Source: Clostridia bacterium (GTDB lineage: Bacteria; Bacillota; Clostridia; TANB77; CAG-508). Taken from it: a stretch of DNA of 55,157 nt. The notes beneath the pieces were generated by a model. The model saw only the letters and a list, made by a program, of their open reading frames with translations, was not told the origin of the DNA and did not search any database. The stretch is taken from the NCBI GenBank assembly GCA_045643205.1, contig JAZUKI010000001.1, forward strand, positions 1 to 55,157, given 5' to 3'. Shown here one piece after another: positions 5,862 to 19,352 of this stretch. The translations under genes and the position numbers were made by a program. Positions within the stretch are counted from its first letter, which is position 1. Each line of letters begins with the position of its first letter.

Positions 5862-5892
5862 AAAATCTACACTTTTTGTGTAGATTTTTTTT
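5862..5892 (+). terminator. Intrinsic terminator
   Basis: AAAATCTACAC-ttttt-GTGTAGATTTT plus T-run. Confidence 0.8.
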
Positions 5893-11235: not shown

Positions 11236-11957
11236 TGGAAGAGAGACTACAAAAAGTTTTAGCAAATGCTGGCGTTGCTTCAAGAAGAAAGTGCGAAGAA
11301 TTAATCTTAAATGGACAAATAAAAGTTAATGGAAAAATAGTAAAAGAACTTGGCACAAAAGTTGATGCAGAAAAAGATAAAATAGAGTATAATGGAAAAC
11401 AGATAAATAAAGTTGATAAATATGTATATATTTTATTAAATAAACCAATCGGATATGTTACTACAATGAATGATCAGTTTGGTAGAGATACAGTAATGGA
11501 TTTAGTTAAAGTAAGGGAAAGGGTTGTTCCCGTTGGAAGACTTGATATGTATACTTCAGGAGCTATACTGCTTTCAAATGATGGAGACTTTGTTAATAAA
11601 GTTACACATCCTAAACATGAAGTCGATAAAACATATAACGTAACAGTTGCTGGAGTTATTTCAAATGAAGATGTTGATAAACTAAGAAAGGGTGTTGAAA
11701 TAGATGATGAAGGAACACCATACACAACTAAAGAAGCAAAAGTAAAAATACTACATATAGATCAAGAAAAGAATTTATCAAGATTGCAAATCACAATTCA
11801 TGAAGGAAAGAACAGAGAAGTAAGAAAGATGTGTGAAGCAGTCGGTAAAAAGGTCATTGCACTACATAGAGCCAAAATTGGCGATATTAGTGTTAAAGAT
11901 ATACCACTTGGAAAGTGGAGATATTTAAAAAATTACGAAATTAAAAAACTAATTTGA
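11235..11957 (+). CDS. rluB: RsuA-family pseudouridine synthase (RluB-like)
   Basis: ERLQK...SRR S4 domain, NKPxG, VGRLD, EGKNREVR. Confidence 0.9.
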   Translation: MEERLQKVLANAGVASRRKCEELILNGQIKVNGKIVKELGTKVDAEKDKIEYNGKQINKVDKYVYILLNKPIGYVTTMNDQFGRDTVMDLVKVRERVVPVGRLDMYTSGAILLSNDGDFVNKVTHPKHEVDKTYNVTVAGVISNEDVDKLRKGVEIDDEGTPYTTKEAKVKILHIDQEKNLSRLQITIHEGKNREVRKMCEAVGKKVIALHRAKIGDISVKDIPLGKWRYLKNYEIKKLI

Positions 11958-11988
11958 TTTTAATTTCACAAAGGAAGGAAGAGTTATT

Positions 11989-12918
11989 ATGATAGAGGAT
12001 AACGAAATTAAGACAAAGGTTTCACCATTTGCAATGAGAGAGGGTGAAATAAAAGTATTTGATGGAAAAGATGGATATGTTTCTATGAATCAAATACTTC
12101 AAAAAATCAATATTGGACATATCAATGAATTACATTTTAAAATTCTAGAATTGATTAACAAATTTGAATTTTTAACATCAAGACAAATATTTCAATTATT
12201 AGAATATTGCAACATGGAAATTAAAGATCAAGATAAACTTAATAAGAAGCTTGAACAATTATTAAAAAATAAAATTATTACTAGATATTATTTCACATCA
12301 GCAGATGGAAATGGTGTTTATAGAGTATACTGCATGGAAAAGATGGGTAAATACCTTTTAAATTCAAGAGAAATTGAATGCAAATGGCAACCATCAGATA
12401 ATGCAAAGCCAGTTGAAATGATGAAGAAAAAATTAGCTGGAAACCAAGTAATCATTGCTTATATGAGAAAGGTAAAGACATTTAAAAATTATCATTTAAA
12501 ACCACAACTAACAGCTAAAAGAATTGGAAAAACATTTAAACCAATTGCATCAATAGATTTTGTAGTAGGAAAAGCAGAAGTTTCAATTGCATATGAAATG
12601 GTAAGAAGAAACCAAAATTGGGAAGAAAAATTAGTAGAAAGAATGATTTTATGGAAAGACTTCTATGAATCATTTGTTCCAGGTGATGCTGGATTTAGAT
12701 CAATACCTCAACTAGTTTTTGTTTGCGAAGATCAAAAACATATGGCTGAAGTATTTAAAGTATTGTATGTTAATAAAACAATATTGCCATCAATAAAATA
12801 TTATTATACAACTGATTTAGATCAAAATGAGGACACTCTAGATAAATCATTGTATGAATTTGTAAGTGATGGAACTCAATTTAAAATTAATAATATTAGT
12901 GCTAAATTCTTAGCATAA
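11989..12918 (+). CDS. Replication-relaxation (Replic_Relax)-like protein
   Basis: Winged-helix N-terminus (ILELINKFEFLTSRQI...LEQL...VYCMEKMG) and a restriction-endonuclease-like C-terminus (YEMVR...WKDFY...PQLVFVCED); strong RBS. Confidence 0.62.
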   Translation: MIEDNEIKTKVSPFAMREGEIKVFDGKDGYVSMNQILQKINIGHINELHFKILELINKFEFLTSRQIFQLLEYCNMEIKDQDKLNKKLEQLLKNKIITRYYFTSADGNGVYRVYCMEKMGKYLLNSREIECKWQPSDNAKPVEMMKKKLAGNQVIIAYMRKVKTFKNYHLKPQLTAKRIGKTFKPIASIDFVVGKAEVSIAYEMVRRNQNWEEKLVERMILWKDFYESFVPGDAGFRSIPQLVFVCEDQKHMAEVFKVLYVNKTILPSIKYYYTTDLDQNEDTLDKSLYEFVSDGTQFKINNISAKFLA

Positions 12919-12922
12919 AAAG

Positions 12923-12952
12923 AAAAGAGGTTGATTTAAATCAACCTCTTTT
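12923..12952. terminator. Bidirectional terminator between convergent genes
   Basis: Perfect 30-bp palindrome AAAAGAGGTTGATTTAAATCAACCTCTTTT. Confidence 0.85.
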
Positions 12953-12964
12953 AATATGACTTTA

Positions 12965-15385
12965 TTAATTATTAGAATTACCAGATGATTTTTTATTAGT
13001 GTTTTTACGTTGTCCTGGGTTGTAGATTGCATCATTATCTCCTGGTTTGATTGATAAGTTAGTTGGATCTGTATGAATTGGTCCATCTGAATTATCATCA
13101 CTAAATGAAACTTTATCTGTTCTTCTATGAGCTGTATTTCCAAATTTATTATAAACAGTATCATTATATTTATCAGTTTCTTTAGCATTTGCAATACCAT
13201 TAGAGAAACTTGTAAAATTATATGATTTAATTTTTTGTTTATCTAAGTATTTAGGTGACATGAAATCAAGATCAGCTTGACCATTATCAATTTTACCACC
13301 TAAGTTCTTAATTTTATATGTACATCTCTTGAACTTAGCACCAGAAATTGTTCCAGCAAATTGTTTTGGACCCCATCTATATGCAACATTAGCTTTAGAA
13401 GTATATGCATCCTTTTCTTTATCAAAGTCATTATCAGAAATCCACCATTTTTTAACTTGACCAATTTCACTTTGCCAGTAAACAGCATCTTCTGGAGAAA
13501 CACCACCAAATACGATTTTGTTTGAACAGTTTGATAAAATTGTGTCACCAATTTTAGAATAATCTCCAGTAGTTGTTAGTTGGTCATTTGTATCACTTAA
13601 ACTTACTAATGAGCTCTTACCTCTTAATTGAGATAAGTTTTGTACAGAAATAACTGTACCAATTCTATATTTTCTATAAGTTGTAAATATTAATTCTGTA
13701 GCAGGACAAATGAAATCAGCAAATTCATCAACATATAAATAGTGAGGGATACGTGATTTTTCATTTCCTGGTCTTCTTAATACAGAGTATTGCATTAATA
13801 GCAAATAGAATAAACCAAATGCTCTATGAGCTGTTTCTCCTAAATCACCACGTCTTGTACAAACTAAGCAAACATCACCATTTTCAAGAACATTATCAAA
13901 ATTAATATTATTTTCTCTATTACATAAAATACGTTTAATTCCAGGATATCTTAAAAGTGTATCAAGTTGAGCTAAAGGAAGAGAAACTAATTTTTTCATT
14001 TCATCCTTGCTATTACCACTTTCATAGAAATTCTTTCTGAAATAAGCAATTTGATTTTCATATTCCTTTGAAAGAACTTCATCTTCTTCAAGAATTCTAC
14101 ACATTTTTTCTATAACATCAAAATTATTTAATAACTTATACATATCATTTAAGTTTGGTAATTTTCCTGCATTTAATTTAGGATATACAACTTTTAATAA
14201 GATAGCTAAGTTTTCAACAACTTGATTAGCTAAGTTTTCTTTATAATTTAATCCACCTGAAGCTGTAGCATAGAAGCCACCTAAAATTGTAGATATAGCT
14301 GTAGCTGCTTGTAGAGGAGAAGTAAATGAGAATGGATTTAATCCAATAGAATCTGAACTATTAGGATCAAATAAGTAATATCCAATACCATGAGCAGCAC
14401 AAACTTTTTTCATTTTTTCAATTGTTTCATCATCTGGAGCAATATATGTTAAACCTAAATCTCTATAAGTATAATTTGAACCAGATTGATTCATTACTAA
14501 TTTTTTGAAGTATGAAGCATAAGCCTTAGCTTTTGATTCAACTGGAAGAATCATATTTAATGAGAAATTATTATTAATGTAGTCATTATCATATGGAGCA
14601 TTTAATGTTGCTATTCCAGTACGTAAAGCTGCGTTAGCCATACTCTTAGCTGTTTCTCTATAAAAATATTTCTTATATAAATCTTGAGCAATCCAAGGTT
14701 CAAAAATTAATGTTGTTTTACCAGCACCAGAAACTCCAACTGCAAGTGTTGATTCGTATCTTCTTATTTCTGGAAGCTTAACTTTAGTTCCATATTCTTT
14801 TTCAATACCAATATAGATTTCATTAGTGAAATTACCCCAACCTTTAGTTGTATCACTTAAATCTATACCTGTATAATCATAAATACCTTCAAAAACTTTT
14901 CTAGTATCATTAATGTCTAAGTATAATTTCTTAAATATTGTTCCAGCAGTGAATAGAGGAAGAAGTAATGCTAATGAACCGAATGCTGGGCTAATTAAGA
15001 AACCAAAATTTTGAACTATACCAGTAAAGTTTGGAACAGAGATGAATCCCATCCAAAGTAATTTGTTTGCACCTTCAGTAAACATTAAAATTACTAAAAT
15101 ATAAAATTCAATTACAAATCTATTAAACCATTTAACTTTATCATTATCTACTTTTACAAACTTTGATTTCATAGCAAATGCAAATGAGAATACACAAGAC
15201 GCTAATGCTAAAGTGTACATTAGTGGGCTCCAATAATAATAAGCTACACCTGTAAAAATAATAAATGCAAATTCAACTAAACGATCTATTAAAAAATACA
15301 CAGTTAATAAAGATAGAATATATGTAAAAAATGTATTTCTATCTGTTTTTAGTGCATTTAAAAATTTATCTAATAATTTAAGCAT
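12965..15385 (-). CDS. Type IV coupling protein-like ATPase (VirD4/TraD/TraM-recognition family)
   Basis: About 4 N-terminal TMs; Walker A GVSGAGKT (14714-14737); FDP...LNPF; Walker B YLYVDEF (13721-13741); RKYRIGTVISVQNLSQL; ILSNCSNKIVFG; GAAAGGA RBS. Confidence 0.85.
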   Translation of the reverse strand: MLKLLDKFLNALKTDRNTFFTYILSLLTVYFLIDRLVEFAFIIFTGVAYYYWSPLMYTLALASCVFSFAFAMKSKFVKVDNDKVKWFNRFVIEFYILVILMFTEGANKLLWMGFISVPNFTGIVQNFGFLISPAFGSLALLLPLFTAGTIFKKLYLDINDTRKVFEGIYDYTGIDLSDTTKGWGNFTNEIYIGIEKEYGTKVKLPEIRRYESTLAVGVSGAGKTTLIFEPWIAQDLYKKYFYRETAKSMANAALRTGIATLNAPYDNDYINNNFSLNMILPVESKAKAYASYFKKLVMNQSGSNYTYRDLGLTYIAPDDETIEKMKKVCAAHGIGYYLFDPNSSDSIGLNPFSFTSPLQAATAISTILGGFYATASGGLNYKENLANQVVENLAILLKVVYPKLNAGKLPNLNDMYKLLNNFDVIEKMCRILEEDEVLSKEYENQIAYFRKNFYESGNSKDEMKKLVSLPLAQLDTLLRYPGIKRILCNRENNINFDNVLENGDVCLVCTRRGDLGETAHRAFGLFYLLLMQYSVLRRPGNEKSRIPHYLYVDEFADFICPATELIFTTYRKYRIGTVISVQNLSQLRGKSSLVSLSDTNDQLTTTGDYSKIGDTILSNCSNKIVFGGVSPEDAVYWQSEIGQVKKWWISDNDFDKEKDAYTSKANVAYRWGPKQFAGTISGAKFKRCTYKIKNLGGKIDNGQADLDFMSPKYLDKQKIKSYNFTSFSNGIANAKETDKYNDTVYNKFGNTAHRRTDKVSFSDDNSDGPIHTDPTNLSIKPGDNDAIYNPGQRKNTNKKSSGNSNN

Positions 15386-15473
15386 AATAGGTTCCTTTCA
15401 CTATACATACTTGTACACTTCTATTATCTTACAAAATGGCAAAAAATACAAGTGTTTCAGGCTATTTTTGAAC

Positions 15474-15506
15474 AAAAAAAGAAGTGGAAAAATCCACTTC
15501 TTTCTC
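15474..15506 (-). terminator. Terminator after hup
   Basis: AAAGAAGTGGA-aaaa-TCCACTTCTTT with an A-run on + (U-run on -). Confidence 0.8.
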
Positions 15507-18233: not shown

Positions 18234-18428
18234 ATGAAAAACGAAAGAGGAGTATCTTTAATTTCATTAATTATAGCAATTTTAGTTTTACTATTAATTG
18301 CAGGAGCAGTAATAGCTATAGCTGTTAATAAAAAAGTTTTTACAAACAATGAAAATGATACAATAGAGAATAATACTGTAATAGAAAATATAGTTGAAGA
18401 AAATGCAACTTCAGAAAACAATGCATGA
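18234..18428 (+). CDS. Minimal type IV pilin-like protein (non-canonical leader)
   Basis: MKNERG|VSLISLIIAILVLLLIAGAVI class III signal-like N-terminus, then a short Asn/Glu tail; abuts the TPR stop codon. Confidence 0.7.
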   Translation: MKNERGVSLISLIIAILVLLLIAGAVIAIAVNKKVFTNNENDTIENNTVIENIVEENATSENNA

Positions 18429-18536
18429 TAAATATATAAAAAATATAAACATATAAACTAATATGTATATTATGCGTATCATGTATAAGTTTACAAACAA
18501 AGAAAGATAAATAAACACAAAGGAGAAATACAACAG

Positions 18537-19352
18537 ATGGATATTGGATTACATATAATTATATTCATTATAGGTTGTTTTGTTGGAAGTCTAGTTGAAG
18601 AACTAGGATATAGAATTTCAGCAAAAAAGAAAGTATTTAGTGGAGCTATTAAATGTCATAAATGCAATCAAGATTTTGAATGGTCAGAATGCATCCCAAT
18701 TATAAGTTACCTTATATATAATGGTAAATGCAAACATTGTAACAAACCTTTAGTTTTTAAAAAGTTTGTTGTCGAACTATTATTTGGAATAATGACATTA
18801 TTATTAGGTAAAGCTTATGGAATAACAACTACTACAGCATCAGTAACAAATTTCTGTGAGTTATTTGTTTCTGAACTATATTTAATATTTATATATTTTA
18901 TTATAGTACAAGATTTTAATAATCATGTTGTTTCAACTAAAGTAGTTAATTATGGAATTGTTATTTCAGTAATTAGAATTATTATAGATTACATTAGTTG
19001 CTATATAATGCATCAACAATTAAATTTAAACAGATTAATTATATATTTAATTGCAATATCATTATTACTAGTAGCTAGTCTTACTCAAAAGAAGAAAAAT
19101 AAAAAGAGAGATTATCCTATTAATATGGCTTTAATTTGTGCAATTATGGGATTGTTTACTCAAGAAATAGCAGTTATTATAACAGTTATAATGACATTAA
19201 TAATGACATGTTTAAGAATAGTACTAAAGAAAATAAATGACAAATCAAGCAAATATAAGAATAAAACTGTTCCTAGTTTACCAATAGGAGCTTATCTAGC
19301 AATTTCAAATTTTACAATACTATTAATATCTGTATTTATGTTATTAGATTAA
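18537..19352 (+). CDS. Prepilin peptidase-like protein (A24 with N-terminal Zn domain)
   Basis: GCFVGS, CHKC...IPIISYL...GKCKHC, VELLFG, QD, C-terminal LPIGAYL; GxGD motif not found. Confidence 0.8.
   Translation: MDIGLHIIIFIIGCFVGSLVEELGYRISAKKKVFSGAIKCHKCNQDFEWSECIPIISYLIYNGKCKHCNKPLVFKKFVVELLFGIMTLLLGKAYGITTTTASVTNFCELFVSELYLIFIYFIIVQDFNNHVVSTKVVNYGIVISVIRIIIDYISCYIMHQQLNLNRLIIYLIAISLLLVASLTQKKKNKKRDYPINMALICAIMGLFTQEIAVIITVIMTLIMTCLRIVLKKINDKSSKYKNKTVPSLPIGAYLAISNFTILLISVFMLLD

Follow-up and report, generated by a model that had tools for sequence, protein, structure and literature searches.

Two convergent genes, here referred to as gene A and gene B, were studied in a 55,157 nt stretch of DNA from Clostridia bacterium (contig JAZUKI010000001.1 of GenBank assembly GCA_045643205.1, positions 1 to 55,157 of the forward strand; the whole of this stretch is called the window). 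The window is contig C1 of a genome of 1.008 Mb that consists of 10 contigs and is scored as 100% complete. Gene A (11989–12918, + strand) is an open reading frame of 309 aa encoding a putative relaxase or DNA-processing protein of a chromosomal type IV secretion system (T4SS), and gene B (12965–15385, - strand) is one of 806 aa whose product is assigned to the coupling ATPases of the VirD4/TraG/TrwB type. Both genes are single-copy, vertically inherited core genes of the chromosome, kept under purifying selection, in an uncultured order of gut Clostridia with small genomes that is probably TANB77 of GTDB.

When analysing the region upstream of gene A, the rluB-like pseudouridine synthase gene was found to end at position 11957, 31 bp before the start of gene A. 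Within this gap a purine-rich tract resembling a ribosome binding site could be read from the sequence (AAAGGAAGGAAGAG, 11970–11983, + strand), ending 5 nt 5' of the ATG. The genes leuS, a gene for a 622-aa membrane protein, rluD, rluB and gene A are all co-directional with intergenic gaps of 0–31 bp, and a terminator scan listed a + strand terminator-like site at 5862–5888 and none on that strand between 5888 and 12923, so none between rluB and gene A, as the first-pass annotation of this DNA had read. With co-directional genes, such short gaps and no intervening terminator it is therefore reasonable to regard gene A as the putative last gene of a leuS operon. The spacer between the two genes contains a perfect 30-bp hairpin (12923–12952) of 13 pairs and a 4-nt loop with A/T runs on either side, a putative bidirectional intrinsic terminator common to the convergent genes A and B, as also proposed earlier, and the predicted RNA fold of the spacer is -16.5 kcal/mol. 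In the corresponding spacers of 12 other genomes hairpins are present and their sequences are unrelated. Because the hairpin sequence differs among species it is taken to be an ordinary bidirectional terminator and not a conserved origin of transfer (oriT), and the palindrome was rejected as an oriT candidate.

Upstream of gene B a promoter-like block of 37 nt (15419–15455, - strand) was identified, containing a -35-like box (TTGTAT, 15446–15451), a 17-nt spacer and a -10-like box (GATAAT, 15423–15428). An alignment of sequences upstream of gene B showed that 18 species of f1, one of the order's five families (f1 to f5), retain the block regardless of which gene lies upstream. When the whole genome was scanned with a weight matrix of the block (genome G006 and gapped rows excluded), a single other site was found, located before a murC-like gene, and the block was consequently rejected as a regulon motif of the T4SS; its features suggest a strong promoter of housekeeping type. 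Further upstream lie a hairpin of 9 pairs and a 4-nt loop followed by a T run (15480–15501, - strand), read by eye only and absent from the list of the terminator scan, then hup, just downstream of which the hairpin is placed, and then a pgsA-like gene. The hairpin is likely the terminator of hup, which would leave gene B as a transcription unit of its own. The flanks are thus housekeeping genes (leuS, two pseudouridine synthase genes, hup and the pgsA-like gene), and the guanine plus cytosine (GC) fraction of the A/B region, 0.26–0.30, lies within the 0.23–0.35 found over the window (GC ~28%), so that the host-like composition and surroundings noted before could be verified.

Families and conserved motifs of the two proteins

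Searches with the protein encoded by gene B gave 30.8 bits against the Pfam family TraG-D_C, above the cut-off of 22, 17.8 bits against T4SS-DNA_transf, under the cut-off of 20.1, and an E-value of 7e-8 against the VirD4-like NCBIfam family conju_CD1115, far under the family cut-off. Among 26 orthologues TraG-D_C matched 24, TrwB_AAD_bind 17 and T4SS-DNA_transf 13. The protein contains a Walker A motif (G..G.GKT, aa 217–224), a Walker B motif (DEF, aa 553–555) and an RKY...Q..QL block (aa 571–586), and Walker A, Walker B and the RKY...Q block are invariant over 38 orthologues and paralogues in an alignment from which the duplicate locus L002 of genome G018 was excluded. Hydropathy analysis proposed three to four N-terminal membrane segments, at about aa 19–47, 54–72 and 127–151, and the C-terminal tail is poorly conserved from about residue 640. 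A profile of B found no sequence in PDB at E<=0.01, for which reason the family is considered divergent. Gene B therefore encodes an intact but divergent coupling ATPase of the VirD4 type, which agrees with the first-pass annotation, where an intact VirD4/TraD-like ATPase with membrane segments and the motifs above had been recognised. A role of B as a stand-in for FtsK was rejected, a separate FtsK/SpoIIIE gene of 908 aa being located on contig C5. In family f2 (loci L024, L029, L132 and L133) the coupling ATPase is present in two tandem copies, and because the copies form two sister clades in the B tree the duplication appears to date to the base of that family.

The protein encoded by gene A was compared with Replic_Relax (PF13814), the domain carried by relaxases of the MOBC class, whose partners are coupling proteins of the VirD4 type (PMC5357655, PMC12857230), and which has been assigned to the PD-(D/E)XK nuclease superfamily (PMC3424549). 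Four orthologues, all from within the order, scored above the Pfam cut-off (37.4, 27.8, 27.1 and 25.9 bits in G026, G095, G210 and G237, respectively), and the orthologue in G210 spans positions 1–177 of the 191 in the model. Of the 57 members that make up the wider A family, 33 also matched Replic_Relax (E<=0.01), and three out of ten further members exceeded the cut-off over ~1–181 of the 191 model positions. On account of these matches A is placed in Replic_Relax, probably as a divergent MOBC-type subfamily. The assignment made in the first-pass annotation is consequently supported, with four orthologues passing the threshold and gene A itself scoring below it (20.3 vs 25.3 bits).

The predicted layout of A is a conserved N-terminal peptide (SPF...E...DGK.G), a winged helix-turn-helix and a C-terminal Replic_Relax domain (MOBC, PD-(D/E)XK-class). 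The winged helix-turn-helix is supported by the Pfam match at residues 53–153; a profile of the 57 members run against PDB aligned residues 39–133 to the PadR-family regulator 5dym (E 0.034), and two members of the family matched HTH_12. The best-kept polar residues of the 57-member alignment, K146, N152, E203, R206, E247, D248, H251 and D276, are all present in A. The charged residues are retained to a high degree, E247 in 57/57 members, R206 in 56, D276 in 55, H251 in 54 and E203 in 49, and E203, R206, E247, D248, H251 and D276 are each found in 42 to 57 of the 57. Domains of the A type were also seen in three long proteins (P0172, P0176 and P0186; 1400–1735 aa, the domain at ~residues 311–629) together with NACHT and pentapeptide repeats or with a Roc-COR GTPase, architectures that look like those of conflict or defence proteins.

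Distribution, descent and selection

To describe the distribution of the genes, a set of 41 relatives was used, consisting of 24 genomes of the same genus, 16 from four other families and the window's own. The genomes are reduced, 0.9–1.8 Mb. Gene B was found in 39/41 and gene A in 38/41, with all five families of the order represented, and among the high-quality genomes B is present in 25/25 and A in 24/25. Both genes are missing from G005 and G008, which are 71% and 83% complete, and A is missing from G035. Each gene is single-copy, the one exception being the old f2 duplication that gave B its tandem copies. When the class was sampled evenly (301 genomes, 11 in-order and 290 others), the A profile matched 11/11 in-order genomes vs 1/290 others, and B (E<=1e-20) 11/11 vs 1/289 scored others, one genome being unscorable. 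The A profile furthermore matched at least 537 of 599 candidate stretches of a species-level genome collection, where the best 80 matches are metagenome-assembled genomes from the gut titled uncultured Clostridia or Clostridium sp.; 'Clostridium sp. CAG:492' is among these 80 with 62% identity, and CAG-492 belongs to the GTDB order TANB77 (PMC11680825), on which the probable assignment of the order to TANB77 is based.

Maximum-likelihood trees were constructed for A (33 rows, without the copy of G018, which is cut by a contig end) and for B (40 rows, without the duplicate locus L002 of G018) and rooted on a plasmid homologue and an out-of-order homologue. In both trees each of the five families forms one clade, with support from the Shimodaira-Hasegawa-like approximate likelihood ratio test (SH-aLRT) of 89–100 for A and 99–100 for B, and the two trees agree in recovering the window's genus, in placing f1 beside f5 and in within-genus groupings. 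The ratio of nonsynonymous to synonymous substitution rates (dN/dS) towards the sister species G018 was 0.105 for A and 0.132 for B, as compared to 0.076–0.113 for four neighbouring genes. The genes flanking the pair vary between families and A and B themselves persist.

Both protein families are typical of plasmids and of integrative conjugative elements (ICEs), and integrative mobilisable elements (IMEs) carrying just a MOBC relaxase and a VirD4 coupling protein exist (PMC5357655), which would be in favour of the pair being a remnant or a piece of an integrative conjugative or mobilisable element that was acquired recently. This origin is highly improbable for the present genes, since they are single-copy in nearly all relatives with trees that follow taxonomy, have a dN/dS like that of housekeeping genes, a host-like composition and persist though their flanks differ between families. 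Genome-wide searches with Phage_integrase and Resolvase revealed a single tyrosine recombinase, on contig C10, and two serine recombinases, both on C6, with none on C1 or near the T4SS gene cluster on contig C3 described below, and the whole-genome searches with AAA_10 and CagE_TrbE_VirB likewise gave no match on C1; the window thus has neither integrase nor VirB4, as had been observed from the letters only. Patchiness among relatives, incongruent trees and a recognisable ICE were each looked for and none was found, and the proposal that the pair has been domesticated in the core chromosome is in agreement with its single-copy presence over the order, its trees, the purifying selection and the lack of an integrase nearby.

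Channel cluster, gene linkage and plasmid relatives

A conserved T4SS gene cluster was located at ~217–244 kb of contig C3 in the same genome. It begins with three small pilin-like genes, which show sub-threshold matches to T4SS_pilin or TrbC/VirB2, followed by a PrgI/VirB3-like gene, a gene for a polytopic VirB6-like protein of 400 aa (named by its position and by homology to a gene so placed in a plasmid cluster), a gene for a 668-aa VirB4-like ATPase (P-loop_TraG, AAA_10 and DUF87), several genes for large proteins without family matches and finally a gene for a 1419-aa protein with a Phage_lysozyme2 domain at its end. In the clusters of other families Peptidase_M23 proteins replace the protein with the lysozyme domain. 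The VirB4 is present in 41/41 relatives with 64–97% identity, and in the class sample in 11/11 in-order genomes and in 4/290 others, the latter at 29–39% identity. Family searches of the genome with Relaxase, Rep_trans and Mob_Pre found no member. With the A/B pair and the C3 cluster, the genome has all the components of a conjugation machine of the Gram-positive kind. With a conserved channel cluster in the same genome the pair is not an orphan, and there is no support for the suggestion in the first-pass annotation that type IV pilins might serve it in place of a classical T4SS. The pilin genes alluded to there are located at 18234–19352 of the window; one encodes a protein of 64 aa that carries a type IV pilin (N-terminal methylation) motif, and a prepilin-peptidase-like gene (A24_N_bact) comes next.

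The arrangement of the genes differs between the families. From the coordinates, gene A lies 4–10 kb from the VirB4 gene, at the end of the cluster, in 5/8 of the f2 and f3 genomes (4/4 in f3 and 1/4 in f2). Adjacent and convergent A and B genes were found in 13 out of 16 loci holding both, with spacers of 35–226 bp, and all 13 belong to f1 and f5; the adjacency seen in the window is not constant, and in three of the five families the two genes lie apart in the majority of genomes. In nine of ten non-f1 loci examined a gene for an S1/OB-fold (oligonucleotide/oligosaccharide-binding fold) protein of 169–290 aa is placed directly 5' of gene A (checked with Pfam in five), and three proteins of the wider family are fusions of an S1 with an A domain. 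A 10-kb biosynthetic cluster that the window lacks is situated between B and A in the sister species G018 (L031:6881–16990); its genes encode a protein resembling nonribosomal peptide synthetases (PPDK_N/AMP-binding/PP-binding), a UbiA prenyltransferase, a second AMP-binding enzyme, a GNAT protein and a DUF3419 protein.

When searching plasmids, A-like genes were found only in one record of Clostridium beijerinckii (NZ_CP107023.1, p1) and six of C. botulinum (KT897275–KT897280), and the same seven records are the top 7 matches of B among 378 records. A tblastn search of plasmids with the A-family member P0209 gave no match. Plasmid p1 of C. beijerinckii encodes a VirB4 (39% identity), a VirB6-like protein, a coupling protein (27%) and an S1 protein, whose gene is immediately followed by the A-like one (25%), and also carries integrases and a copy of dnaN. 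The plasmid module has the same gene set as the TANB77 system (VirB4, VirB6-like, coupling protein and the S1 gene upstream of the A-like gene) and is distinguished from it by being plasmid-borne and patchy with integrases nearby; the Clostridium plasmids are probably mobile relatives of the domesticated set of the order. All seven are typed as non-mobilizable (MOB-suite in PLSDB), and the A-type relaxase subfamily is thus apparently missed by MOB-suite. The mobility of these seven large plasmids may accordingly be underestimated, and the present genes flag a relaxase subfamily that plasmid-typing tools pass over.

The unlinked state of A and B in many genomes, together with their convergent orientation and separate transcription signals, also bears on the question whether the two are functionally independent and their adjacency accidental. 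In that case A would be a stand-alone nuclease or regulator, acting for example in genome maintenance or defence, and B alone would serve the T4SS; the fusions of the A domain to NACHT and Roc-COR NTPases, and the resemblance of the A winged helix to that of a retron effector family, are compatible with such a role. We consider this unlikely, as the two genes have matching phyletic patterns (11/11 in-order and ~1/290 outside for each) and congruent trees, A neighbours the T4SS cluster in f3 and in a single f2 genome, and A-like and B-like genes occur together on the seven Clostridium plasmid records.

Possible function and comparison with known systems

Considering the evidence as a whole we lean, with modest confidence, towards A and B forming the substrate-processing and coupling module of a domesticated T4SS of the conjugation type (Gram-positive, MPF_FATA-like) that still has DNA as its substrate. 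An ancestor of this order of gut Clostridia with small genomes would have fixed a T4SS in its chromosome, and the genes would since then have been inherited vertically and scattered among housekeeping genes. B would be a membrane ATPase docking on the channel encoded on C3 (VirB3/PrgI-like, VirB6-like and VirB4 proteins, VirB2-like pilins and a cell-wall hydrolase), and A would bind DNA through its winged helix and cut or hold it through the restriction-endonuclease-like Replic_Relax domain, in most families assisted by the S1/OB-fold partner encoded just upstream. A would then pass the substrate on to B, the substrate most likely being chromosomal DNA that is exported to or exchanged with other cells. 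Such a scheme presupposes physical contact between A and B, nicking activity of A and an oriT in the chromosome, which we infer together with DNA as the substrate. DNA is preferred as the substrate because purifying selection has retained a gene of the relaxase class in almost all genomes, because the family-conserved residues are all present in A, because A travels with an OB-fold partner and because the plasmid homologues look like transfer modules.

Several observations weigh against this interpretation. The match of A itself to Replic_Relax (20.3 bits, E 6e-4) stays under the cut-off of 25.3 and covers model positions 1–103 of 191 (residues 53–153), the PDB profile search with the A family gave the weak PadR-like winged helix (E 0.034) as its sole match, and the A-B spacers yielded no oriT-like sequence that is conserved. 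The fusion of the A domain to NACHT and Roc-COR NTPases indicates that the domain is used not only in conjugation. A and B lie on different contigs or are distant in most f2, f3 and f4 genomes and in several genera of f1, and no orthologue of the S1 partner was found in the host genome. The channel domain of ComEC (PF03772) is present in 39/41 relatives, so most members need no other route of DNA entry. Finally, the chromosomal T4SS of Patescibacteria (the CPR, or candidate phyla radiation) is thought to have been co-opted for functions other than conjugation (PMC12102498).

The Patescibacteria system, which is chromosomal, vertically inherited and derived from MPF_FATA (Quinonero-Coronel et al. 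2025, PMC12102498), appears to be the closest analogue of the TANB77 system. Both are lineage-wide chromosomal systems inherited vertically in reduced genomes, both include monoderm-type PrgI/VirB3, VirB6 and VirB4 with VirB2-like pilin genes and peptidase or lysozyme hydrolases, and the gene for the coupling protein is in both cases often distant from virB4 (PMC12102498). They differ in host, CPR vs an order of Clostridia, and in the relaxase, which is mostly absent from Patescibacteria (109 homologues in 103/3,035 genomes; PMC12102498), whereas the MOBC-like gene is found in 38/41 genomes here. This analogy is the basis for asking whether the domesticated T4SS has instead been co-opted for a role that does not involve DNA, such as delivery of proteins or effectors, adhesion or cell contact, with B coupling proteins and with A acting as a DNA-binding regulator or a translocated protein and not as an active relaxase. 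The reduced genomes (0.9–1.8 Mb) and the presence near virB4 of hydrolase genes and of more than one gene for a VirB2-like pilin, as in the T4SS of Patescibacteria, are in line with this, and the system of Patescibacteria is described as essential for epibiotic growth while mostly lacking a relaxase (PMC12102498). The strongest matches of A fall on its winged-helix part, and a transcription-regulatory role has been proposed for Replic_Relax by Steczkiewicz et al. (PMC3424549). Against it stand the purifying selection on a relaxase-class gene that, unlike in Patescibacteria, is kept in nearly all relatives, the presence in A of all the charged residues conserved in the wider family (E247, R206, D276, H251 and E203) and the resemblance of the homologous plasmid set to a conjugation module, and we regard co-option as the main alternative, less likely than DNA transfer, which remains our preferred interpretation.

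With respect to A, the MOBC relaxases (PF13814), such as TraX of pAD1 and MobC of CloDF13, are similar in that a winged helix at the N-terminus precedes a restriction-endonuclease-like domain, which in A is a predicted one, and in having a coupling protein of the VirD4 type as partner, and orthologues of A pass the Pfam cut-off. In contrast to these relaxases, A has an extra conserved N-terminal peptide and, in most families, the S1-domain partner, it is chromosomal and vertically inherited and not plasmid-borne, and its nicking activity, like an oriT, is putative. The T4SS of the gonococcal genetic island is likewise chromosomal, keeps a relaxase (TraI) and a coupling protein (TraD) and secretes chromosomal DNA; it could therefore serve as a functional model for the proposed export of DNA. 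That island was acquired horizontally by part of the strains of a diderm species and has a MOBH relaxase; unlike the TANB77 system, it is not a core trait of an order.

It is conceivable, and we put this forward tentatively, that relaxase-dependent export or exchange of DNA from the chromosome is part of the core, selected biology of the order, a form of built-in bacterial sex, and that it may replace transformation in the smallest genomes without detectable ComEC. The two genomes in which ComEC (PF03772) was not found, the host (G000, 100% complete) and G018 (86% complete), are the two smallest, both ~1.0 Mb, and the host genome retains two DprA genes and the whole T4SS set. As support for a DNA role this combination of undetected ComEC with retained DprA and T4SS genes is circumstantial and weak.

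Relaxases, coupling proteins and mating channels are taken to belong to selfish mobile elements. With all three fixed in a chromosome, spread among housekeeping genes, passed on vertically throughout an order and maintained by purifying selection, the present case would show that a host lineage is able to take over a whole conjugation machinery and put it to use for itself. On the tentative reading given above, this order would have made a lasting cellular organ out of a conjugative element and, in contrast to Patescibacteria, kept the relaxase. The case would also provide a relaxase-containing counterpart to the relaxase-less T4SS of Patescibacteria and thereby help to address the role of chromosomal T4SSs in bacteria with small genomes. 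The protein families are already known, as is a lineage-wide chromosomal T4SS in Patescibacteria. In the literature searched no system of this kind was described from an order of Clostridia, though the supplements of PMC12102498 (Tables S3 and S4) and of PMC11680825, which lay outside the search, might list related genes, and the same literature described no chromosomal T4SS whose coupling protein and relaxase-class protein are encoded by core genes that are dispersed and inherited vertically. The text of the TANB77 paper (PMC11680825) contains no word beginning with 'conjugat' or 'T4SS'. TANB77 is of practical interest as its abundance has been linked to the response to cancer immunotherapy in one study, the text of which describes only a Tad-like pilus in the order (PMC11680825).

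A second gene for a VirB4-like ATPase (C3:85071–86825, corresponding to L013:10072–11826), with a frame of 584 aa and matches to P-loop_TraG, AAA_10 and DUF87, has gyrB and gyrA on its two sides and is four genes away from dnaA. The operon of this gene in family f5 (G036) also contains ParA-like, CpaF-like (T2SSE) and TadB/C-like (T2SSF) genes and is the Tad-like pilus locus described for TANB77; the ParA-, CpaF- and TadB/C-like genes are missing in the host genome. The Tad-like pilus cluster is considered a conserved hallmark of TANB77, with some CAG-492 species lacking it (PMC11680825). The first 128 codons of the second VirB4-like frame (L013:10072–10460) contain no ATG, GTG or TTG. A GGAG ribosome binding site is present, with ATA codons a few bases after it, which suggests that this gene uses a rare start codon.

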